Counted from the first letter of the stretch, positions 5,062 to 53,366 are shown. The stretch: 64,000 nt of DNA from Escherichia coli 042 (GCF_000027125.1 NC_017626.1), one strand, 5' to 3'. Numbers and translations: made by a program. Notes: generated from the letters alone by a model not told the origin.

Positions 5062-5227
5062 CACATCAACGGTTTGACGTACAGACCATTAAAGCAGTGT
5101 AGTAAGGCAAGTCCCTTCAAGAGTTATCGTTGATACCCCTCGTAGTGCACATTCCTTTAACGCTTCAAAATCTGTAAAGCACGCCATATCGCCGAAAGGC
5201 ACACTTAATTATTAAAGGTAATACACT

Positions 5228-5440
5228 ATGTCCGGTAAAATGACTGGTATCGTAAAATGGTTCAACGCTGACAAAGGCTTCGGCTTCATCACTCCTGACG
5301 ATGGCTCTAAAGACGTGTTCGTACACTTCTCTGCTATCCAGAACGATGGTTACAAATCTCTGGACGAAGGTCAGAAAGTGTCCTTCACCATCGAAAGCGG
5401 CGCTAAAGGCCCGGCAGCTGGCAACGTAACCAGCCTGTAA
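5228..5440 (+). CDS. cspA: Major cold shock protein CspA
   Basis: 70 aa [38 protein letters not shown]... with RNP1/RNP2 cold-shock domain motifs. Confidence 0.98.
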
Positions 5441-5468
5441 TCTCTGCTTAAAAGCACAGAATCTAAGA

Positions 5469-5497
5469 TCCCTGCCATTTGGCGGGGATTTTTTTAT
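5469..5497 (+). terminator. cspA rho-independent terminator
   Basis: Hairpin ccctgccatttggcgggg followed by a run of 7 T. Confidence 0.7.
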
Positions 5498-5627: not shown

Positions 5628-5780
5628 TTACTCTTTCAATTTGCAGGCTAAAAACGCCGCCAGCTCATAACTCTCCTGTTTAATATGCAATTCACACAGT
5701 GAATCTCTTATCATCCAGGTGAAAAATAAAAGCGTGAAACAAATCACTATTAAAGAAAGTAATCTATATTTCTGCGGCAT
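5628..5780 (-). CDS. hokA: Hok-family type I toxin HokA (small membrane peptide)
   Basis: 50 aa MPQKYRLLSLIVICFTLLFFTWMIRDSLCELHIKQESYELAAFLACKLKE; Hok/Gef family. Track ORF extends 20 codons further upstream in frame. Confidence 0.85.
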   Translation of the reverse strand: MPQKYRLLSLIVICFTLLFFTWMIRDSLCELHIKQESYELAAFLACKLKE

Positions 5781-6060
5781 TCCCAGCCCCCTGTGTTGAT
5801 TTCCAACGAGTAAGAGGCTAACCTTATGGTGTCTATGCATAGAGGGGCCTCACTTTGATTTATAGTCAGGTGGGGCTTTTCTCTGTCTGCCTTTCGGTGA
5901 ATACCTGAGACAAACAGTCTCAAGCACCCGCAGCTATTCTAGCTTAATAAGTTCGTTTCTTCTCCTTGATATAATCCTAAAAAAATCTCATAAAATTAAT
6001 ATATGAGACAATCTTTATTCAGCAGAAGATTATTAAAGGTTGCTCTATTATTTAGCGATA

Positions 6061-8180: not shown

Positions 8181-9092
8181 TTACTTATCTTTGTTGCACA
8201 TCGGGAAGCCGAGGGCTTCACGGGAAGCGTAGTATGCTTCTGCCACTGCTTTGGTCAGGGTGCGAATGCGCAGAATATAGCGCTGACGCTCGGTGACGGA
8301 GATGGCTTTACGCGCATCCAGCAGGTTGAAGCTGTGGGCGGCTTTCAGAATACGTTCGTAGGCTGGCAACGGCAGCGGATTTTCCAGCGCCAGCAGCTGC
8401 TGCGCTTCTTTCTCGTACTGCTCAAAGCAGGTGAACAGGAAGTCCACATCCGCGTATTCGAAGTTGTAAGTGGACTGCTCCACTTCGTTCTGATGGAACA
8501 CGTCGCCGTAGGTGGTTTTACCCAGCGGGCCGTCGCTCCAGACCAGGTCGTAAACGCTGTCTACGCCCTGAATGTACATTGCCAGACGTTCCAGACCGTA
8601 GGTGATCTCGCCGGTAACCGGTTTACACTCCAGACCACCAACCTGCTGGAAGTAAGTGAACTGCGTCACTTCCATGCCGTTCAGCCACACTTCCCAGCCC
8701 AGCCCCCAGGCACCCAGCGTCGGGTTTTCCCAGTTATCTTCCACGAAACGGATGTCGTGGATGGTCGGGTCCATGCCCAGCTCTTTCAGAGAACCAAGGT
8801 ACAGCTCCTGAATATTGTCCGGCGATGGCTTAATGACCACCTGGAACTGATAGTAGTGCTGTAAACGGTTGGGGTTTTCGCCGTAGCGACCATCGGTCGG
8901 GCGACGAGAAGGCTGGACATAAGCAGCCGCCATCGGTTCTGGCCCCAGCGCGCGCAGACAGGTCATTGGGTGAGAGGTTCCCGCGCCGACTTCCATGTCC
9001 AATGGTTGAACAATGGTGCAGCCCTGGCGAGCCCAGTAATCCTGTAAGGTCAGGATCAAGCCCTGGAAGGTCCTGGTATCAAACTTTTGCAT
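8181..9092 (-). CDS. glyQ: Glycine--tRNA ligase alpha subunit
   Basis: 303 aa [25 protein letters not shown]...; lies 9 bp upstream of glyS, operon arrangement. Confidence 0.97.
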
Positions 9093-9186
9093 ATTATTTC
9101 GTGCTGGATACGTGTGGATTTAAAGGAAGGGATCAGTATACCCGCTGGATGGAAGATATACAGTACGAAACGGGAAAAAGCAGGGC

Positions 9187-9495
9187 TTAACGCATGGAAA
9201 GATGCAAAAAATGGCCATCTGCGTCAAAAGAACAGACAAACTGCTCTTTACGGAAGGTATAACCGCGCATTTCGTAGCTCCCCTGGAACTGTTCAAATGC
9301 GGTGACGTCGATTTTTTGCGCACCTGTATTATAGCGTTTTGCCGCCTGATCTTTGCATAGCCCTTCCATATTCAACGAACGCAGAGGATCAACCTTTACC
9401 CGTTGTGCTTTCTGCACGGGTGGCGGTGTAGAACAACCCACTAGCGCCATAAGCACCATAAGCGCCATTGCCGGAAAGAAAGAGTTCATCATCAT
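9187..9495 (-). CDS. ysaB: Small lipoprotein YsaB
   Basis: ~100 aa ORF with signal peptide and lipobox (LVGCS); exact start among the three N-terminal Met codons uncertain. Confidence 0.75.
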   Translation of the reverse strand: MMMNSFFPAMALMVLMALVGCSTPPPVQKAQRVKVDPLRSLNMEGLCKDQAAKRYNTGAQKIDVTAFEQFQGSYEMRGYTFRKEQFVCSFDADGHFLHLSMR

Positions 9496-9669
9496 TAAAT
9501 TACCGTCTGGTTTGCAGGTGAGTCTTATTATTTATATCGGTATAGTGGCTGATATCTTACGAATTTCCTTAAGCCTCTATAAGCTGTAGTGATAAAACTC
9601 AGATTATTCCAGTGCGCCAACCGAATGATTTATCGGTCAGACTTTTTTTAACCAGATACAGAGACACAG

Positions 9670-10665
9670 ATGCAGCCCAAAATTTACTGGATTGATAACC
9701 TGCGAGGGATAGCGTGTTTAATGGTGGTGATGATTCACACCACTACCTGGTATGTGACCAATGCTCATAGTGTTAGCCCCGTCACATGGGATATCGCCAA
9801 TGTTCTGAATTCTGCCTCTCGTGTCAGCGTGCCGCTATTTTTCATGATTTCCGGCTATCTCTTTTTTGGCGAACGCAGCGCCCAGCCGCGCCATTTCTTG
9901 CGTATCGGCTTATGTCTGCTTTTTTATAGCGCAATCGCACTGCTCTACATTGCGCTGTTTACCTCCATCAATATGGAGTTAGCGCTGAAAAACCTGCTGC
10001 AAAAGCCAGTGTTTTACCACTTGTGGTTTTTCTTCGCGATTGCGGTGATTTATCTGGTTTCACCGCTGATTCAGGTGAAGAACGTCGGCGGAAAAATGTT
10101 GCTGGTGCTAATGGTGGTGATTGGCATTATCGCTAACCCAAACACAGTGCCGCAGAAAATTGACGGTTTTGAATGGCTGCCAATTAACTTATATATCAAT
10201 GGCGATACTTTTTACTACATCCTGTATGGCATGTTGGGCCGCGCTATAGGGATGATGGACACACAGCATAAAGCACTGTCGTGGGTGTGCGCCGCACTGT
10301 TTGCGACGGGGGTTTTTATTATCTCTCGCGGGACATTATATGAATTGCAGTGGCGCGGAAATTTTGCCGATACCTGGTATCTTTACTGTGGGCCGATGGT
10401 TTTTATCTGCGCAACCACGCTATTGACTCTGGTTAAAAACACGCTTGATACGCGTACTGTTCGCGGACTTGGCTTAATCTCCCGCCATTCGTTGGGTATA
10501 TACGGATTCCACGCCTTGATTATCCATGCACTGCGCACCCGGGGGATTGAGCTTAAAAACTGGCCAATACTCGATATTATTTGGATCTTTTGCGCGACGT
10601 TGGCAGCGAGTTTGTTACTTTCTATGCTGGTACAACGAATCGACAGAAACAGACTAGTGAGTTAA
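9670..10665 (+). CDS. wecH: Membrane O-acetyltransferase WecH (YiaH), acyltransferase-3 family
   Basis: 331 aa polytopic membrane protein, [23 protein letters not shown]... typical acyltransferase_3 N-terminus. Confidence 0.9.
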
Positions 10666-10667
10666 AT

Positions 10668-10702
10668 AAAAGCCCGGTCACATTGGACTGACCGGGCTTA
10701 TG
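10668..10702. terminator. Hairpin between convergent wecH and yiaA
   Basis: Inverted repeat gcccggtca...tgaccgggc; U-tract on the minus-strand reading. Confidence 0.5.
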
Positions 10703-10706
10703 TGAA

Positions 10707-11147
10707 TTATTCGCTGTATTCTTCCTGGGTAATCAGTGTTTCTTTTGGTGGGTTTATTCCGGCATCACGAATATTCTTCTGCACCGCTACTGCACCAAAC
10801 AAGCTTAAGAAGAAAGCCAGTCCATAAAAACCTTTCTCGCTGAGTAATAACGTCGCATTCCACAGACCTACCATCAGTAACGCAACAGAGATAATAAAGA
10901 CAGTCAGGCAGGTCATATAATAAATGGAGGTGGTCGGTATGCCTTCATACTTGTCCCGAACGGTCTTTTGATAAGACGCCGCAGAAAACAGTCCTAATAC
11001 CAGTACGGCAAAATAATATCCTTTTTCATTTAACTGCATCTCTGCATTCCATAGCCCTAACAGATAGGTAACGATACCACCAACGAGAGCTATCCATGAC
11101 ACAATACTGAATGCCGGAGAATAGGTTGATATTTTGTTGTCCATCAC
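10707..11147 (-). CDS. yiaA: Inner membrane protein YiaA
   Basis: ~145 aa, two repeated YiaAB-type transmembrane halves; start may be the second Met. Confidence 0.85.
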
Positions 11148-11189
11148 AGTATTCCTTTCATTCCTGAATGTGTAAGAGCTTTATGTTGC

Positions 11190-11531
11190 TCATGCCGGGC
11201 GAAACAAACGCATTTGACCAAACAAGCAGACAAAAAAGGCGATAGGGTAGATCACCATTTCATAAGCATTGATAGGTGCGTTTAAAACACCGATAAACAA
11301 GAGACCGATAGTGATTAACGCAACTAACTGGCAGATGTGGGTAAAAAAATCATCCAGTTGCCCGAGTTTTTCTGCGCGAAGATATGCATAGTTGCCAAAA
11401 GTTGCCGTCATTAACACGCCAAGAAAATAGCCTTTTCCACTTAACAATGGGCATGAGATCCATAGCCCAAGCAGATAAACCAGCGCCCCGACAACAAATA
11501 ATATTTTTGCCACAGTCTTTGAGGTTTTCAT
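11190..11531 (-). CDS. yiaB: Inner membrane protein YiaB
   Basis: 113 aa from MKTSKTVAKILFVVGALVYLLGLW; paralogous to yiaA half; track ORF over-extended by 14 codons. Confidence 0.85.
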   Translation of the reverse strand: MKTSKTVAKILFVVGALVYLLGLWISCPLLSGKGYFLGVLMTATFGNYAYLRAEKLGQLDDFFTHICQLVALITIGLLFIGVLNAPINAYEMVIYPIAFFVCLFGQMRLFRPA

Positions 11532-11698: not shown

Positions 11699-13153
11699 TT
11701 ACGCCATTAATGGCAGAAGTTGCTGATAGAGGCGACGGAACGTTTCACGTCGTGGCTGATAAGCGGCATAACGCTGCGCATCTGGTAGATGCGACTGTTC
11801 TAACGGCAGTTGCGGCAACAACTCAATGAGCGATTTCTCTGGATTCGCCGCAATCTGCGCCAGCCTTGCTGCGCCCAGAGCTGGCCCCACATCCCCCCCC
11901 GTGCGGTAATCGAGTTGCTGACCGCTGATATCCGCCAGCATCTGACGCCAGTACTCACTACGCGCCCCGCCACCAATCAACGTAACACTTTGCGGTTTAA
12001 TGCCGCAGCCATGCACGACATCCATGCCATCTGCCAGCGCATAACCCACACCTTCCAGCACTGCTCGCGCCAATTCATTGGGGCCATGTTGATGAGTCAA
12101 ACCAAAGAACCCCCCCTTCGCCTGGGGATTATTGTGTGGTGTACGCTCGCCGGAAAGATAAGGCAGAAACCAAACTGGCTCGGCACTTTCATCAGCCTGT
12201 TGAGCAGCCGCGATTAAAGCTGGGACATTGTTCAGGCCCGTTAATTTCGCAGCCCAATCCAGACACGACGCTGCACTCAGCATCACAGACATTAAATGCC
12301 AACGCTGCGGTAGCGCATGGCAAAAGCTGTGTACGGCGCTTTCTGGCTTGCTTAAGAACCCTTCGCTGACAGCAAAATAGACTCCCGACGTCCCCAGCGA
12401 TAACATTGCCTGATTAGCATCAACCATTCCTACACCAACCGCACCAGCTGCATTATCACCACCGCCTGCGACAACTGGCACCGCCGCCATACCCCACGCT
12501 TTCGCAACTTCAGGTAGCAAAGCACCAGTAATTTCGCTGCCTTCGTATAATGCGGGCATCTGGTCACGAGATAAGTGGCAAGCCTGCAGCATGTCGTCAC
12601 TCCAGTCACGCTTTGCGACATCCAGCCACATGGTGCCAGCTGCGTCAGACATATCGCTGGCAAACTCCCCCGTCATACGCAGACGCAAGTAATCTTTCGG
12701 TAACAATACTTTGTCGATTTGACGGAATATCTCCGGCTCATGCCGCTGCACCCATAGCAATTTAGGCGCAGTAAATCCGGGCATCATCAGGTTACCGGTA
12801 ATCACCCGCGATTGCGGAACTCGCGCTTCCAGCAAAGCGCACTCTTGCGCACAGCGCCCGTCGTTCCACAAAATGGCAGGGCGTAATAACCGTTGCTGGG
12901 CATCCAGTAAGGTTGCACCGTGCATCTGGCCGGCAATACCCAATGCTTTAACGTCCTGCAGAGAATGCTGATCGCCCAGGGCTTTCATTGCGCGATCAGT
13001 TGCCTGCCACCACTGTTCCGGGTCTTGTTCCGACCAGAGTGGATGCGGGCGCGAAACGGTCAGCTTTTCCGTTTGCGAAGCAACCACCTCACCCTGCTCG
13101 TTGAGCAAAATAACTTTTACGCCCGAGGTGCCAAGATCTATCCCGATATACAT
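11699..13153 (-). CDS. xylB: Xylulokinase
   Basis: 484 aa MYIGIDLGTSGVKVILLNEQGEVVA...; FGGY carbohydrate kinase. Confidence 0.97.
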   Translation of the reverse strand: MYIGIDLGTSGVKVILLNEQGEVVASQTEKLTVSRPHPLWSEQDPEQWWQATDRAMKALGDQHSLQDVKALGIAGQMHGATLLDAQQRLLRPAILWNDGRCAQECALLEARVPQSRVITGNLMMPGFTAPKLLWVQRHEPEIFRQIDKVLLPKDYLRLRMTGEFASDMSDAAGTMWLDVAKRDWSDDMLQACHLSRDQMPALYEGSEITGALLPEVAKAWGMAAVPVVAGGGDNAAGAVGVGMVDANQAMLSLGTSGVYFAVSEGFLSKPESAVHSFCHALPQRWHLMSVMLSAASCLDWAAKLTGLNNVPALIAAAQQADESAEPVWFLPYLSGERTPHNNPQAKGGFFGLTHQHGPNELARAVLEGVGYALADGMDVVHGCGIKPQSVTLIGGGARSEYWRQMLADISGQQLDYRTGGDVGPALGAARLAQIAANPEKSLIELLPQLPLEQSHLPDAQRYAAYQPRRETFRRLYQQLLPLMA

Positions 13154-24658: not shown

Positions 24659-24772
24659 GCCTGATGCGCTACGCTTATCAGGCCTACATGATTTCTGCAA
24701 TATATTGAATTTGGTAGAATTTGTAGGCCGGATAAGGCGTTTTAGCCGCATCCGGCATAAACAAAGCGCACT
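24659..24772. repeat. REP/BIME cluster
   Basis: gcctgatgcgctacgcttatcaggcctaca and gtaggccggataaggcgtt...gccgcatccggca REP-type palindromes. Confidence 0.75.
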
Positions 24773-39926: not shown

Positions 39927-40901
39927 ATGACAAAATTACAACTTAAGTACCGGGAGTTAAAAATTATCTCGGTAATCGCTGCCAGTGAAAATATCAGCCA
40001 TGCCGCGACTGTACTTGGCATCGCACAGGCCAACGTCAGCAAATATCTTGCTGATTTTGAATCAAAAGTGGGTTTAAAAGTTTTTGACCGAACCACCCGA
40101 CAACTGATGCTCACACCTTTTGGCACCGCGCTATTACCGTACATCAACGACATGCTGGACAGAAACGAGCAGCTTAATAATTTTATTGCAGATTATAAGC
40201 ATGAGAAACGTGGTCGGGTCACCATCTACGCCCCAACCGGCATAATTACCTATTTATCCAAACATGTAATCGATAAAATTAAAGATATCGGTGATATCAC
40301 CTTATCGCTAAAAACCTGCAATCTTGAGCGTAATGCCTTTTATGAAGGCGTCGAATTTCCTGATGATTGTGATGTTTTAATCAGCTATGCCCCACCAAAA
40401 GATGAATCGCTGGTTGCCAGTTTTATTACCCAATATGCCGTAACCGCTTATGCCAGCCAGCGCTATCTTGAGAAACATCCCATTAGCCGTCCTGACGAAC
40501 TCGAACATCACTCCTGTATTTTGATCGACTCGATGATGATCGACGACGCGAATATCTGGCGCTTCAACGTCGCCGGGAGTAAAGAGGTGCGGGATTATCG
40601 CGTGAAGGGAAATGACGTTTGCGACAACACGCAATCGGCGCTGGAGCTGGCACGAAATCACCTGGGGATTGTGTTTGCGCCAGACAAAAGTGTGCAGAGC
40701 GATCTGCAAGACGGCACGCTGGTGCCCTGCTTTCAGCAACCCTATGAATGGTGGCTGGATCTGGTGGCTATCTTCCGTAAACGGGAATACCAGCCCTGGC
40801 GGGTCCAGTATGTGCTGGATGAAATGCTGCGTGAAATTCGCCACCAGCTTGCTCAGTCGCAGCAACTGCGGCCTGAACAAGCGGCGGAAAGCGAAGATTA
40901 A
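39927..40901 (+). CDS. yiaU: LysR-family transcriptional regulator YiaU
   Basis: 324 aa, N-terminal LysR HTH (…[23 protein letters not shown]…). Confidence 0.9.
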
Positions 40902-42034
40902 TGATCGAGATAAAGGTAATGCACCCAACTGGTCATGCGTAACAGCACTTTGCGCATCACCGAGACATGGCTGAAATGATCAGAGTAAACCGCCACCTGG
41001 GCGTAAATACCGTCTGGTAAAGCGCTCAAATCAGTGTGCTCATCCAGTTCAATGGTCGCGATAACGCCATCTGAACCCGGCGCTGTGTTTAACGTCTGTA
41101 AGGTGCCGGTCGACTGATAAGCTCCGCCGGGAACGGCTGGACTAATGGCTGCCAGCTTACCGCTGAATACCTTACCTGGCAGAGCATTAAACACCACTTC
41201 CGCATCGTCGCCAGGAGCCAGTCGCAGCAAGGAGTTCTGACGGAACTGCGCCACGATTTGTCGTTTCTGATCGGGTATAAACACCATCACCGGACGTAGC
41301 GGCAGCGACGCGGCATAGGTACCCGGACGAATCAGGACCTGAGTCACATAACCATCGCTCGGCGCACGCACTATCGTCTGCTCAAGGTTATATTTTGCTT
41401 CCGCGAGCTGCGCTTTCAGGCTGGCGATTTGAGAATGTTCACCCAACACCAGGCTATCCAGCTGGCTCTGGATCTGTTTTTGTTCCGCTGCCGATGACTT
41501 TACGGAGGCTTCCTGCGCCAGATAATTTTGCCGCGCCACATCGATATCGCGTTCTGAAAACGGGTTTACTTTCGCCTGGCTGCCGCGTGCGTAACGCTGA
41601 TACTCTTTAGCGAATTTATCCCGCGTGGCCTTTGCCTGCTGAGTATTCGCCACCATCTCATCTAACTCTGCGCCCAACGCCCGCTGTTTATGTTCTGCGG
41701 TAACGATATCCGCCATCAGCCGATCCACCCGCGCCTGATAACGCGTCGGGTCCAGTCGAAATAGCACTTCACCTTTTTTAATCAGCGTATTTTTCTTATC
41801 CGTCACTTCAATCACCACACCAGTCACCTGTGGGACAACAGGAATAGAAATAACCGCTTTTTGCGCTTTAAAGGTATACGGATGGTTATAGTTCATTAAC
41901 AGAATTAGACCGCTGACAATAAATATTCCACCCAGGGCCGCTGTGGGAATGGTCCATTTATTTACGGGAATTTTGAAGATCTTAAACATTGCCCATGCAA
42001 AAGCCACATAGGTCAAAATAATCAGTAAATCCAT
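40898..42034 (-). CDS. yiaV: HlyD-family membrane fusion-like protein YiaV
   Basis: 378 aa, N-terminal TM helix, coiled-coil, barrel-sandwich hybrid; overlaps yiaU stop by 4 bp (convergent). Confidence 0.9.
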
Positions 42035-42039
42035 AAGTA

Positions 42040-42363
42040 TTACTCGGCAGAAGAGGATTTGATGTCGGCGAGCTGTTTCTCCAGCCCGGCAATGCGCTGT
42101 TGCAGTTGCATAACGGATGAATCATGGCTTTGCATTCCCCATCCCCGCTCCGGGCGGTAAAGCGTGGCCCAAATCCACAAAAACGGCCAGATAACATGTA
42201 ACGTAAAAAGACTCACCCAACCAGCAACATGAATGGCGTCGGCATGAGGATGATTACGTTTTTTAGCAATCAGGTAGGGAATATCATGTAAAATAATAAT
42301 CCCATAAAATATCACCAGAAATACAAAAATAAGCACTCCCAGCGCAAAATAGTCCAGGAACAT
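42040..42363 (-). CDS. yiaW: Small inner membrane protein YiaW (DUF3302)
   Basis: 107 aa from [30 protein letters not shown]; track ORF over-extended by 10 codons. Confidence 0.88.
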
Positions 42364-42476
42364 ATTTCCCTCAAAGAATATAAAAAAGAACAATTAACGC
42401 ATATTATGAAATGCCATGATGCAGTGCAATTTCCTTATTTATATAACGACATATTGTTTTTTATATACTTTCTGAA

Positions 42477-42689
42477 GTGTGCTGCGTGGCTTTTCAACAG
42501 GTCGAGGTTTATCATATTGAAATAATGGAACTATTGACCAAGCTAATGAATAACTCCAGTAAAACATCCACAGTACAGATAAAGCGTATTAAACCTTCAA
42601 TTATCTACCGTTTATTGCTGATTGGCCTCGGAACGCCAATGGTGATTTACGGCCTGGTTTGCCCGCTCACCATCGAAACGCGAGATTAA
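42477..42689 (+). CDS. Candidate small membrane protein (hypothetical; coding status uncertain)
   Basis: 70-codon ORF (or 54 from internal MELLTK...) with one hydrophobic helix (RLLLIGLGTPMVIYGLVCPL); weak RBS; divergent from yiaW. Confidence 0.2.
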   Translation: MCCVAFQQVEVYHIEIMELLTKLMNNSSKTSTVQIKRIKPSIIYRLLLIGLGTPMVIYGLVCPLTIETRD

Positions 42690-44553: not shown

Positions 44554-45849
44554 CTACAGCGGGTAATGTGCGACGTACACGGCTTGCTGGTCATTAATTT
44601 TCTTCTCTTGCGCAAACCCTTCTTTAACAATCGTCCGTAAATCAGCTCGAGCCGTATTATCAGAGACGCCCAGGCTCGCGCTAATTTCAGCAACTGTGTA
44701 CTCTTTCCCCGGATTGGCGAGCATCACATTCAGGAGCGTTACCTGGCGAGGATTCAAGCGTTTAAGCACGCCAGAGCTAAACAGCACACTATCGAATTTT
44801 GCGCTTCGTTGCATAATTTCATCAATATGCTGCTGCCAGTTTTGCAAAGCACGTTTAATGACACCCGCCTGATAATCAAGGAAATAAGTCAGATCCATAC
44901 CATCTGATTCAGTGTACTGGCAGCTGGCGGCATATTTGACCGGTGCAGCATGAAGCAAACGGCTGATGGAAATATATTTAAAGACATCGTAGCCCGATTT
45001 CAGCATATACCAGTAAAACAGTGCCCGACTGGTGCGCCCGTTGCCATCGCGAAATGGATGTTCATGGGCCAGCATAAAATGCAGAATGCAGGCACGGATT
45101 AACGGGTGAATATACCCTTCATGGCTGTTTAACCACTGGCAAACTTTTTCCAGCCGTTCCAGCAACAATGCCGCAGCGGGCGGTTGGTGCACAATATTGC
45201 CGTCATAGTCGGCGATCACAACATCATCTGTTTCACGAAATTCTCCCGGACGATATTTCGCGTCATTGATTCCACCCATACCAATGGCATGTAACTGGCG
45301 AATAAGCGCAGTCGTCAGCGGTTCTGCGAGTAAGTGCGGAATTTCCGCCATCAGCCGGGCATTTCCCGCAATCATATGCTCGTCTTCAGTGCGTGGCGAC
45401 CGCCCTGTTTCCAGCATTTTTCTCGCCACCAGCGTTGTAGTATTCGCACCTTCCAGCTGGGAGCTGGTGATCGGCTCTTCCAGGCGTAACTGGCTTAACT
45501 CGGCTCCGGCCCCGCGTAACCGTTCAGTCTGATCTTTCAGCGCCAGCGCGGTAGCACGTTTGTCGACAAGCTCGCACGCTTCTGCAATCACCGGGGTAAT
45601 GTTGAATCCGGCCTGTTCACCCGCTTCATTGCAATAATTAATTCGTTGGATCGCCGCGTTGCGCGCCAGACGGGTAAGCGTCCACGCCACATCGACGTTT
45701 TCTCCTTTTTTGATGCGGTACTGCAACTCATCAAAAGGTAGATAACGTCCTTTTTCATCGGTAACCCGGTTAAAGCGCAGGTGGGCCTGGAGTTCCTCAC
45801 CCGATAAGTGTGATAAAGGAATAAGTCCGGGAGGTGATTTGATAGCCAT
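44554..45849 (-). CDS. Fic-family protein (class II, internal inhibitory helix) with C-terminal wHTH-like domain
   Basis: 431 aa; canonical Fic active-site motif [12 protein letters not shown]; upstream inhibitory-type motif SSQLEG ([S/T]xxxE[G/N]); C-terminal segment [39 protein letters not shown] resembles a winged HTH. Not in the recalled K-12 aldB-yiaY gene order. Confidence 0.85.
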
Positions 45850-50649: not shown

Positions 50650-51258
50650 TCAAGCCTTTGGCGGTTCGGTGCGAGCAAAACTTTCGCGGCTAAACAGGTT
50701 TTCGACCAGTTTGACTAAGTGTGGGCGGTCGACACACCAGCCTGGCGCAACGCGGCGGAAATTGAGATATCCGACGGCACAGGCAATGGCGATAGTCGCC
50801 AGATTGACCGTATCGGTTTTGAGCGTGCCATCGACCAGATATCCTTCCAGCACATCCAGACTGCGGTTGATTTTCTCCCGCTGGCGTAACAATTCATCTT
50901 CAGACTGCTGCGCCGCCGGACGCGCCTGTTCACGCACCGATACCAGCCCGGCATCCATAATGCCATCCGCCAGCGCCTCAATTTTGCGCACCCGCAACGA
51001 CTCCAGCGGATCGCGCGGCAACATCGCCGGAGCGACATTCATTAATTCAATATATTCAGCGATGATCGGCGAATCAAACCAACATTCGCCCTCTTCGGTC
51101 ACCAGCACCGGCACTTTCCCTAACGGGTTAAATTGCGCCACGCCGTTGTCCGCGTTATAGGGCAGTTCATTAATAAATTCGAAAGTTATGCCCTTTTCTA
51201 ACAACAGAATAGAAAGTTTGCGTACAAACGGGCTGGTGTAGCTACCGACGAGTTTCAT
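50650..51258 (-). CDS. yibF: Glutathione S-transferase-like protein YibF
   Basis: 202 aa [28 protein letters not shown]... GST N-terminal thioredoxin fold. Confidence 0.92.
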
Positions 51259-51328
51259 GCCGAGTCCTTTGTGCGAGGAAAAATATCAGTATGGCTCAGG
51301 CTCACGCAAAACACAGGTGATATAAGTC

Positions 51329-52465
51329 TCAATGATCCAAATAAAGATAATGCATCCAACTGGTCATTCTTAGCAGCACCTTCCGCATCACCGAAACATG
51401 GCTGAAATGGTCGGAGTAAACTGCCACCTGGGCGTAAATGCCGTCGGGTAAGGCATCGATATCATCGTTAGGGTCCAGTTCAATGGTTCCCAGCACACCG
51501 TCCGTGCCGGGCACGACCGTTAATGATTGCAATACCCCCTGCGCCTGATAAGAACCGCCTGGCACGACAGGTAAAATACTGGTCAGTTTGCCGTGGAACA
51601 CCTGCCCAGGTAGCGCGTTAAACACCACTTCCGCATCATCGCCGGGTTTCAGACGTAACAGCGAGTTTTGCCGAAATTGGGCGACAATTTGCCGTTTTTG
51701 CTCGGGGATGAAAACCATCACCGGACGCAACGGCAAGGCAGCTGCGTATGTACCTGGGCGGATCAGTACCTGAGTAACGTAGCCATTGCTCGGCGCGCGA
51801 ATGACAGTCTGCTCAAGGTTATATTTTGCTTCAGTAAGTTGCGCTCTTAAGCTCACAATCTGCGACTGCTCGCCGTTAACCATACTGTCGAGCTGGCTCT
51901 GGATCTGCGCCTGCTCCGCCACCGAGCCTTTCACCAGCGCATCCTGCGCGAGGAAATTTTGCCGCGCATCGTCGATGTCACGTTCCGAGAACGGATTCAC
52001 CGCCGCCTGGCTGCCTTTCAGGTAACGTTGATAATTTTTAAACAGACGGTCGCGCTCCGCTGAAACCTGGGTGGTGTTGGCCTGCGCTTCAGTGAGCTGC
52101 GCGCGCAGCGTCTTTATATTATGCGTCGCCGTCATCAGGTCAGCCTGAAGTCTGTCAACTCGCGCCTGGTAACGGACCGGGTCGAGTTTAAAAAGCACCT
52201 CGCCCTTTTGAATAAGCTGATTATTTTTGTCAGTGACTTCAGTAACAATTCCCGTCACCTGTGGCGTGATGGGGATCGCTATCACTGCCTTTTGCGCGGT
52301 AAAAGTGTAAGGGTGATTGTAGTTCATCAACAAAATCAAACCACTCACCAGAAACACGCCTCCCAGCGCCGCCGTCGCCAGCGTCCACTGATTTACCGGA
52401 ATGCGGAAGATTTTAAAGACCGCCCACGCCAGCGCCACGTAAGTTAAAACGATCAATAGATCCAT
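51329..52465 (-). CDS. yibH: HlyD-family membrane fusion-like protein YibH (paralogue of YiaV)
   Basis: 378 aa; by eye roughly three quarters identical to the YiaV ORF at 40898-42034, identical termini (MDLLI... / ...HYLYLDH). Confidence 0.9.
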
Positions 52466-52467
52466 AA

Positions 52468-52830
52468 TTAGATCTCCGGGAACGTGGAATAGTCAGTCTT
52501 TTTCTCGGCGGCGAGTTGATGCTCCAGCCGGGAAATTCGGTCAGAAAGTGCGGCGATTTCCGGGTCAGTCGCTTTCTCCTGCGACGTAACATGTGACTGC
52601 ATACCCCAGCCACGCTCCGGTTGATAGAGCGTCGCCCAGATCCACAGAAACGGCCAGATAACATGCAGAGTAAACAGGCTCACCCAGCCCGCCGTATGAA
52701 TAGCGTCGGCATGGGGATGGTTGCGCTTTTTGGCAATCAGATAAGGGATGTCATGTATCGCGATGATTCCATAAAAAATCACCAGAAAGACGAAGATCAG
52801 CACTCCCAACGCGAAATAGTTTAGAAACAT
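52468..52830 (-). CDS. yibI: Small inner membrane protein YibI (DUF3302; paralogue of YiaW)
   Basis: 120 aa [30 protein letters not shown]...; 2-bp gap to yibH. Confidence 0.9.
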
Positions 52831-53046
52831 ATCTGCCTCGGATTCACGTTTATCGGTGTTGTTTTTTGGCTGGCAGCCAGAAGGGAGTCAGGCTGATATT
52901 TTGACAATAATCCGGGTTCGCGATTCTCGCCATAACACCAAAGAATAATTTTAAGAGGTGATGAGTTGCTTAGTTACATAACGATTTCATGACGAAGGCA
53001 TAACATGCTGTAGATCACATCAGGTGAACGCCGTAAGAAAATATCT

Positions 53047-53223
53047 TGTGATTCAGATCACAAAGATTCAACAAACCATCAAAACAAAAATGTGACATCA
53101 CTCACATTTAAATGCCATTTTTAGCGAAAATCGCCGCCTTGTTGCTTTTTTACACAATAGTTTTGTGATGAGCATCACGTCAATTACCTCTCTACCCCCT
53201 ATATTTATGTGACTGATATCACA
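53047..53223 (+). promoter_or_regulatory. Array of four CRP-consensus palindromes in the mtlA promoter region
   Basis: TGTGA-N6-TCACA matches at 53047-53062 (tgtgattcagatcaca), 53091-53106 (tgtgacatcactcaca), 53208-53223 (tgtgactgatatcaca) and near-match 53164-53179 (tgtgatgagcatcacg). Confidence 0.7.
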
Positions 53224-53366
53224 CAAAAGGCCGTCGACTGGACAGTTAACCGATTCAGTGCCAGATTTCGCAGTATCTACAAGGTCCGGCTACCTCTGCC
53301 GCCACATTAACAAAAAACCTCGGGCTTCCAGCCTGCGCGACAGCAAACATAAGAAGGGGTGTTTTT

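Follow-up and report, generated by a model that had tools for sequence, protein, structure and literature searches.

The window analysed here, a 64,000-nt stretch of the Escherichia coli 042 genome (GCF_000027125.1, NC_017626.1; coordinates are counted from its first nucleotide), carries two pairs of uncharacterised genes, yibI-yibH (51329-52830) and yiaW-yiaV (40898-42363), in each of which a gene for a small membrane protein with a DUF3302 domain is followed by a gene for an adaptor of the HlyD type. According to our sequence comparisons, yibIH and yiaWV are best described as two copies, long diverged, of a single self-contained module of two genes. Further, we propose, with a probability of roughly 0.4, that the adaptor and the DUF3302 protein form a membrane complex that docks on TolC, with DUF3302 in the place of the transporter. 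Since both pairs and their relationship have already been catalogued, the paralogy is not new, and it is in itself ordinary; the interest of the module lies in an efflux-type adaptor that is encoded without a pump, behind a tiny membrane protein, and sometimes together with a TolC-like channel.

All four genes lie on the minus strand, with yibI (52468-52830, 120 amino acids) preceding yibH (51329-52465, 378 amino acids), and yiaW (42040-42363) preceding yiaV (40898-42034, 378 amino acids); for yiaW, the RefSeq length of 107 amino acids is used, the open reading frame (ORF) lister reaching up to a TTG at 42393. The junction between the small and the large gene measures 2-5 nt in both pairs. Six-frame ORF lists bear out the common gene order, orientation and lengths reported in the first-pass annotation, which had also quoted the shared termini MDLLI... 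and ...MTSW[M/V]HYLYLDH correctly. In pairwise alignments the similarity is far beyond chance: by BLASTP, YibH and YiaV are identical at 292/378 positions (77%, gap-free, E = 0), and YibI and YiaW at 85/113 (75%, E = 3e-62), with an 8-residue gap and differing tails. The extensive identity claimed in the same annotation thus holds for the proteins; at the nucleotide level it is real but reaches only 70% between yibH and yiaV, with a proportion of synonymous differences (pS) of 0.76, which is saturated, and a nonsynonymous distance (dN) of 0.18. The DNA similarity spans from the ribosome-binding site of the small gene to the stop codon of the large gene, and the flanks of the two pairs (100-200 nt were included in the alignment) do not align. 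Because pS is saturated and the flanks cannot be aligned, the nucleotide identity reflects protein conservation only. The four genes had been described as known but without an assigned function, which agrees with their generic RefSeq names, read from the near-identical E. coli strain 135 (megablast, 99.1% identity): 'HlyD family secretion protein' for yibH and yiaV, and 'DUF3302 domain-containing protein' for yibI and yiaW. In addition, yibH and yibI are among the uncharacterised genes of the 2024 E. coli y-ome (PMC11551758), TCDB has YiaV, under 8.A.1.1.4, among the membrane fusion proteins that are uncharacterised (PMC10971958), and no functional study of yibH, yibI, yiaV or yiaW was found in the searchable literature.

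The same gene pairing was found in about 150 loci overall, from alpha- and gammaproteobacteria plus metagenomes. A first set, with one genome per species, comprised 88 DUF3302 loci that were classed by their flanking genes; a same-strand adaptor gene directly follows the DUF3302 gene in 78 of them, with a 1-5 nt gap or a 4-nt overlap in 72 of these 78, and the exceptions are mostly locus ends or a start-codon artefact, one of them having IS5 beside the gene. In a second, metagenomic set seeded from a distant member, DUF3302 is followed by the adaptor in 64/68 loci, the exceptions including one locus with IS4 inserted between the genes and one ORF-calling artefact. At the yibI-yibH junction (52463-52480, minus strand) the codons are arranged as TAA-TT-ATG, and a GGAG lies 8 nt before the yibH ATG, within the end of yibI, a layout that suggests translational coupling. 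From gene order and spacing, we infer that DUF3302 is an obligate, co-translated partner of this adaptor type.

As judged from profile matches and structure prediction, YibH and YiaV are EmrA-like periplasmic adaptors without a membrane-proximal domain. Both match the Pfam families CusB_dom_1, HlyD_D23, HlyD_3 (residues 221-301 in YibH) and Biotin_lipoyl_2, and the closest solved relative of YibH by sequence is EmrA (1.7e-11). Against the NCBIfam models for EmrA/EmrK (TIGR00998), MdtN (NF007785) and AaeA (NF007850), YibH scores 113.5, 110.9 and 75.1 bits, far below the respective cutoffs of 390.8, 376 and 400, and YiaV also stays far below them, which leaves both outside these three families; the generic RND_mfp model is passed by YibH only (99.9 bits against a cutoff of 94.9; YiaV, 88.1). 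An AlphaFold2 (AF2) model was obtained for YibI and YibH joined by a Gly-Ser linker, using an alignment of 24 natural pairs joined alike, with a mean predicted local distance difference test (pLDDT) value of 74.7 and values of 80-94 over the periplasmic domains. Numbered along YibH, helices are predicted at 1-19, 26-50, 97-152, 161-193, 201-218 and 355-374, and strands at 53-94 and about 221-350; the third, fourth and fifth of these helices constitute a long hairpin, with helices of about 56 residues. The top Foldseek matches were the EmrA chains of EmrAB-TolC (8zal/8zar; E 6e-19, TM-score 0.62), followed by MacA and AcrA/MexA. Pfam, AF2 and Foldseek all point to a lipoyl (barrel-sandwich) domain split by the alpha-hairpin, and HlyD_3 together with the AF2 strands locates a beta-barrel after the second lipoyl half. 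An inner-membrane anchor is present as well, but it consists of two conserved hydrophobic helices (residues 2-20 and 29-47) rather than one.

This transmembrane (TM) hairpin, recognised by hydropathy within residues 1-50 (52316-52465, minus strand; motif MDLLIxLTYxA...MNYNHP), displays a conservation of 0.81-0.90; ordinary adaptor membrane anchors are poorly conserved. Because the loop between its helices has a lysine plus arginine (K+R) value of 2.8 and no acidic residues (D+E 0), it is probably cytoplasmic, with an N-out/C-out topology. At the other end of the protein, residues 351-378 (51332-51415, minus strand) form a basic C-terminal helix in the AF2 model (355-374, or 500-519 of the fused chain) with a conservation of 0.87, and are a hallmark of this adaptor subfamily. 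Both the hairpin and the C-terminal helix recur in relatives from Alcanivorax, Pseudoalteromonas, Agrobacterium and metagenomes. The periplasmic domains (0.65-0.77) are less conserved than either element, and the tip of the long hairpin falls from 0.75 within Enterobacterales to 0.38 in the five most distant aligned pairs. With PADLOC defence models, YibH gave nothing beyond coiled-coil noise (E about 0.005), and YibI gave no match at all.

YibI and YiaW match PF11742 (DUF3302) with 140 and 146.7 bits (cutoff 32) over model positions 1-76/77. Hydropathy predicts two TM helices in YibI, at about residues 6-25 and 46-68; the protein also has a His-rich loop that is conserved and a coiled-coil-like tail that varies, and the AF2 helices span residues 2-35, 41-67 and 90-112. 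The best-conserved part in the alignment is the loop HDIPYxIAKxRNHPHxDAIH together with the second TM helix (residues 26-68; 52627-52755, minus strand), with a conservation of 0.81 versus 0.27 in the tail; P29, A33, H38, P39, A43, W49, S51, L52, W59, P60 and W65 are invariant in 29 diverse homologues. The family is small, since 1.84 billion cluster representatives included 820 members at E <= 1e-3, and it is conserved to an unusual degree: YibI is about 60% identical to its homologues in Rhizobium, Vibrio and Pseudoalteromonas. A PDB sequence search with YibI returned no solved structure, just coiled-coil noise from designed proteins. Kinship with AaeX (DUF1656) was considered and rejected, as YibI gave no PF07869 match even at E <= 10, while AaeX scores 72 bits against that model. 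Domain fusions of DUF3302 were likewise discarded, the longer representatives being only start-codon extensions or low-complexity tails.

The first-pass annotation had suggested an efflux or secretion accessory role without an obvious pump partner, and this description extends beyond the window, as no pump recurs beside the pair in about 60 contexts elsewhere. In the window, no RND, ABC, MFS-exporter or FUSC gene adjoins either pair. Seven annotated plasmid or chromid contexts (from Pseudoalteromonas, Agrobacterium, Rhizobium, Microvirga, Pantoea, Enterobacter and Klebsiella) have no third gene in common, and RND, ABC-exporter and FUSC genes are absent from all of them. In 23 genomic contexts with 125 flanking ORFs, the Pfam families that recurred were LysR (7), aldehyde dehydrogenase (4), MlaD/PqiB (4, all from Pantoea), ABC-importer permeases (4) and DUF3313 lipoproteins (4), and the 25 most frequent families did not include ACR_tran, FUSC, ABC-exporter or OEP; a further 30 to about 40 flanking ORFs from metagenomic contexts were likewise mixed, and none of them was an RND, ABC-exporter or FUSC gene. 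Conversely, in five distant locus types the pair has a gene of the TolC family (PF02321, OEP) at a distance of 11-72 nt, in the order DUF3302-adaptor-OEP in L087, L109, L144 and L145, and OEP-DUF3302-adaptor in L088, L089 and L090. Against PF02321 (cutoff 22), the five OEPs reach 124-153 bits, and the adaptors of these loci are shorter (315-320 amino acids) with the same N-terminal hairpin and C-terminal helix. None of these OEP-bearing operons includes a canonical pump.

Regarding the age of the copies, a synonymous-site clock was dropped, pS being 0.74 already between E. coli and Citrobacter orthologues; because synonymous sites are saturated and dS is uninformative, the split was dated by dN. 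E. coli YibH differs by 0.063-0.066 from the YibH of Citrobacter, Raoultella and Enterobacter, and by about 0.125-0.13 from that of Serratia and Buttiauxella; E. coli YiaV differs by 0.073 from Citrobacter YiaV, and by 0.17-0.19 from any YibH-type protein. At 0.18, YibH and YiaV are 2.7 times as far apart as the Escherichia-Citrobacter orthologues, and the two lineages show similar evolutionary rates. Because the dN is larger and the rates are similar, these sequences indicate that the YibH/YiaV split predates the divergence of Escherichia and Citrobacter, and apparently that of Escherichia and Serratia too. A neighbour-joining tree, which as a tree from one protein is weak evidence, places the YiaV clade outside all other Enterobacterales YibH, with the fast-evolving Atlantibacter orthologue joining the YiaV clade; both pairs have syntenic orthologues in Citrobacter. 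The ancient segmental duplication proposed in the first-pass annotation is thus well founded as to its antiquity, through dN, tree and synteny. As to its mode, a local duplication with many later losses is plausible, and is favoured by the copies lying only 9 kb apart; an old lateral acquisition followed by vertical descent fits the yiaWV data equally well, given the narrow distribution of yiaVW.

In the 88-locus set, the yibF-yibHI-mtlA layout was found throughout the Enterobacteriaceae, in Escherichia, Citrobacter, Klebsiella, Raoultella, Enterobacter, Kluyvera, Leclercia, Lelliottia, Yokenella, Pseudescherichia, Atlantibacter and Pluralibacter, and the yiaU-yiaVW-aldB layout only in Escherichia, Citrobacter and Pseudocitrobacter. 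The pair stands in other contexts in Serratia, Rahnella, Pantoea, Buttiauxella, Budvicia and Edaphovirga, whose adaptors are 78-84% identical to YibH and 73-76% to YiaV; Serratia grimesii has two DUF3302-adaptor pairs, and the Yersinia locus stops short of the adaptor gene. The best 120 homologues in word-indexed searches were all close Enterobacterales and of no use for context. Within E. coli, yibIH is core, being full length in 5383/5426 complete genomes, and yiaWV is accessory (3769/5426, 69%). Both E. coli copies are under purifying selection, with dN/dS far below 1. A further divergent DUF3302-adaptor pair, with 50% identity to YibI, was observed in Klebsiella pneumoniae (L008 7001-8487) beside an iron ABC importer, in a 5.37-Mb record that is labelled as a plasmid and is probably a mislabelled chromosome.

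The TolC-docked complex proposed above would work as follows. The YibH/YiaV adaptor is anchored by its conserved two-helix membrane hairpin and, by analogy with known adaptors, YibI/YiaW would ring a hexameric adaptor funnel in a membrane-embedded complex, while the alpha-hairpins of the adaptor would dock on an outer-membrane channel, TolC in the case of E. coli. The outcome would be an envelope-spanning export conduit, with whatever substrate and energy source it might employ, whose inner-membrane component would be DUF3302 and not an RND, ABC, MFS or FUSC protein; the invariant His/Asp loop of DUF3302 is a candidate for a site that responds to protons or metals. In support of this proposal, conservation is higher in the membrane parts of the two proteins than in the periplasmic domains; the EmrA-like fold, the strict pairing, the lack of a recurring pump gene, the neighbouring OEP genes of distant members, the strong purifying selection and the expression and fitness data cited below also speak for it. 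An extended version, which we consider unlikely, would make the module a hitherto unrecognised, minimal class of envelope conduits linked to outer-membrane factors (OMF), with DUF3302 as the working part in the inner membrane, its HD...HPHxDAxH loop as a proton- or metal-responsive gate, and two systems in E. coli, the core yibIH and the accessory yiaWV. Several observations weigh against the proposed complex. With just two TM helices, DUF3302 would make a very small transporter, and no motif for energy coupling was demonstrated in it; the orientation of YibI according to the positive-inside rule is ambiguous (K+R of 2.6 in the loop and 2.2 in the segment after the second TM helix); and the membrane parts of the fused AF2 model reach only a moderate pLDDT of 55-80. 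Of about 37 evaluable metagenomic contexts outside E. coli, just 5 had an OMF gene (a count in which L087 and L088 were added to the scripted tally), and the enterobacterial, Vibrio and Rhizobium contexts had none. Moreover, 31% of complete E. coli genomes lack yiaVW, yibH has been employed as a neutral site for integration (PMC5852967), and phagosome maturation in a macrophage assay was unaffected when yiaW was disrupted (PMC5495878), the last two observations indicating that loss of the genes is well tolerated in the laboratory.

The absence of an encoded pump may also be understood if YibH and YiaV serve an unlinked pump, for example an orphan ArAE/FUSC-like protein (YccS, YhfK, YeeA) or an MFS transporter, with DUF3302 as an accessory comparable to AaeX or AcrZ. 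There is precedent in that E. coli pumps commonly rely on an unlinked TolC; the nearest NCBIfam models (EmrA/EmrK, MdtN and AaeA) all describe adaptors of MFS or FUSC-type pumps, a small gene with two TM helices ahead of the adaptor resembles the aaeX-aaeA order, and one metagenomic locus (L099) has an MFS gene about 500 nt downstream. Against this, adaptor genes are almost always found in one operon with their transporter, and no transporter family recurs in the roughly 60 contexts from two proteobacterial classes; in addition, the operons with DUF3302, adaptor and OMF genes appear complete without a pump, DUF3302 has no detectable relation to DUF1656, and the TM parts are the best conserved, which would not be expected of a simple anchor or accessory. 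We regard an unlinked pump as the main rival, though a somewhat unlikely explanation. A drift of decaying pump operons that lost their transporter would equally account for the lack of a pump nearby, for the dispensability of yiaVW in almost a third of E. coli genomes and for the lack of a strong laboratory phenotype, but the selection data contradict such decay: between genera whose synonymous sites are saturated, dN is 0.06, yibHI is full length in nearly all E. coli genomes, and the two-gene architecture has been kept from Enterobacterales to Rhizobiaceae with a small protein that is still about 60% identical. This makes decay by far the least probable of the explanations considered.

A non-transport role, in which the complex would be an envelope-spanning structural or signalling assembly of stationary phase, urine or osmotic stress with the adaptor fold as a periplasmic spacer, finds some support in the reported expression and phenotypes. 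In O157:H7, yiaW and yibH rise upon entry into stationary phase (PMC2241611); in uropathogenic E. coli UTI89, a promoter trap showed 5.6-fold induction of the yibI promoter region in urine, and yibI deletion resulted in a competitive index of 0.33 in urine and less adhesion to bladder cells (PMC5404293); and deletion of yiaW is said, in a work cited in PMC12844161, to raise the efficiency of Ca2+-mediated chemical transformation. The lipoprotein genes that stand beside the pair in some genomes (DUF3313 in four loci, YscW-like and DUF4136) could also be accommodated, as could the finding of no drug-sensitivity phenotype in the searchable literature. However, to our knowledge every characterised protein with this adaptor fold, including the Foldseek matches, acts in a tripartite export system, and the co-operonic TolC-family genes of the distant members indicate a channel function, for which reasons we consider a purely structural or signalling role quite improbable. 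Compared with these alternatives, the complex in which DUF3302 takes the transporter's place remains our preferred, if tentative, explanation.

Some lineages show further genes near the module. A DUF3313 lipoprotein gene (lipobox LTAC) is found within about 1 kb of the pair in four genera (L077 7193-7861, L083 7289-7960, L061 9626-10294 and L084 10502-11176; 41-45% mutual identity), in two of them directly upstream on the same strand, and it may be a lineage-specific third component. Lipoprotein-type genes also lie directly upstream in Alcanivorax (YscW-like, L086 7013-7918) and in a metagenomic locus (DUF4136, L092 5909-6439). SulP/STAS transporters (L087 5534-7234, L133 8431-10215) and Na+/H+-exchanger-family genes (L144 6605-7810, L106 4887-6107) were observed close to the module; in L106 the gene lies about 0.85 kb upstream, in the other three loci shortly downstream and on the strand of the module; either family as a hidden pump was rejected, as each occurs in two loci and in none of the other contexts examined, and there is no precedent. 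Metal-related neighbours comprise ZinT (L083 9589-10239), HupE/UreJ (L139 3616-4602) and, in L008, an RcnB family gene (about 12360-12815) along with the iron ABC importer (8528-11530); together with the His/Asp loop, these few cases, each from a single locus, hint at a metal connection and are to be taken as a lead. Genes of the DUF1254/DUF1214 families flank the pair on an Agrobacterium plasmid (L003 9337-14288) and on a Rhizobium sullae plasmid (L004 8254-10887).

In the window itself, yibF adjoins yibH directly with a 70-nt spacer (50650-52465), the rhsA/yibJ/yibG/yibV block that separates both genes in K-12 (PMC11551758) being absent; the contiguous yibF-yibH layout is found in 1523/5425 genomes. 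The divergent region between yibI and mtlA (52831-53366) is the presumed site of the yibIH promoter, although in a consensus scan promoter-like sites were no commoner there than in shuffled sequence; overall, promoter and terminator scans were at most modestly above shuffled sequence and provided no usable promoter or terminator, and an Rfam scan of the whole window found no family near yibIH or yiaWV. At the other pair, yiaU (39927-40901, plus strand) converges on the 3' end of yiaV with a coding overlap of 4 nt (40898-40901), and the overlap of their transcripts has been catalogued as an 'excludon' (PMC12288877). YiaU (LpsR) is reported to regulate yiaT and the waa operon, in a paper where yiaV and yiaW are unmentioned (PMC9068703), and an IS1 insertion in yiaW has been described in macrophage-evolved clones (PMC5495878). 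A 70-amino-acid ORF with a hydrophobic C-terminal half (42477-42689, plus strand; 'hypothetical protein' WP_000885435.1) occupies the yiaW-aldB spacer.

Elsewhere in the window, a 431-amino-acid ORF between aldB and yiaY (44554-45849, minus strand), annotated as 'Fic family protein' in strain 135, is not known from K-12. The segment 34511-38933, between sgb/araD-like genes and yiaT, comprises an AraC-family regulator, an MFS transporter and a glycoside hydrolase family 127 gene, and looks like a strain-variable sugar-utilisation islet. Rfam matches were a cspA thermoregulator (5068-5495, plus strand, 498 bits), a sok antitoxin RNA (5778-5929, minus strand, 120 bits), which implies a hok/sok locus, and the small RNA ES036 (24680-24722, minus strand), which at 38.9 bits is barely over the threshold.

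Among known systems, the closest parallel is EmrA of the MFS-type EmrAB-TolC pump (TCDB 8.A.1), which is about 20% identical to YibH and has the same domain plan of anchor, hairpin-split lipoyl domain and beta-barrel without a membrane-proximal domain. Nevertheless, EmrA has one TM helix, whereas in YibH two TM helices are conserved, as is a C-terminal helix; and no emrB-like MFS gene adjoins yibH, whose predicted obligate partner is instead DUF3302. The AaeX-AaeA-AaeB system for p-hydroxybenzoate efflux (FUSC/ArAE) also places the gene of a small two-helix protein directly before that of the adaptor, as in yibI-yibH, but AaeX is a member of DUF1656 without detectable similarity to DUF3302, AaeA has only one TM helix, and in AaeXAB and MdtNOP the large pump protein is encoded in the operon by aaeB and mdtO, for which yibIH and yiaWV have no equivalent. 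Canonical tripartite operons find their nearest counterpart in L087, L088, L109, L144 and L145, where the pair and a TolC-family gene form a similarly tight three-gene operon, with a DUF3302 protein of 105-165 amino acids as opposed to an energy-coupled transporter of 400-1000 amino acids. Should the unlinked-pump explanation prove true, the module would still indicate the missing partner of an orphan pump; if DUF3302 truly replaces the transporter, it would represent a new architecture among Gram-negative tripartite export systems, and would provide a testable role for four E. coli y-genes, including yibI with its reported fitness effect in urine. Taken together, our results describe the module as a variant of the tripartite-pump adaptor theme, which retains the fold of the family, departs from it in not being encoded with a transporter, and adds to it a TM hairpin and DUF3302.

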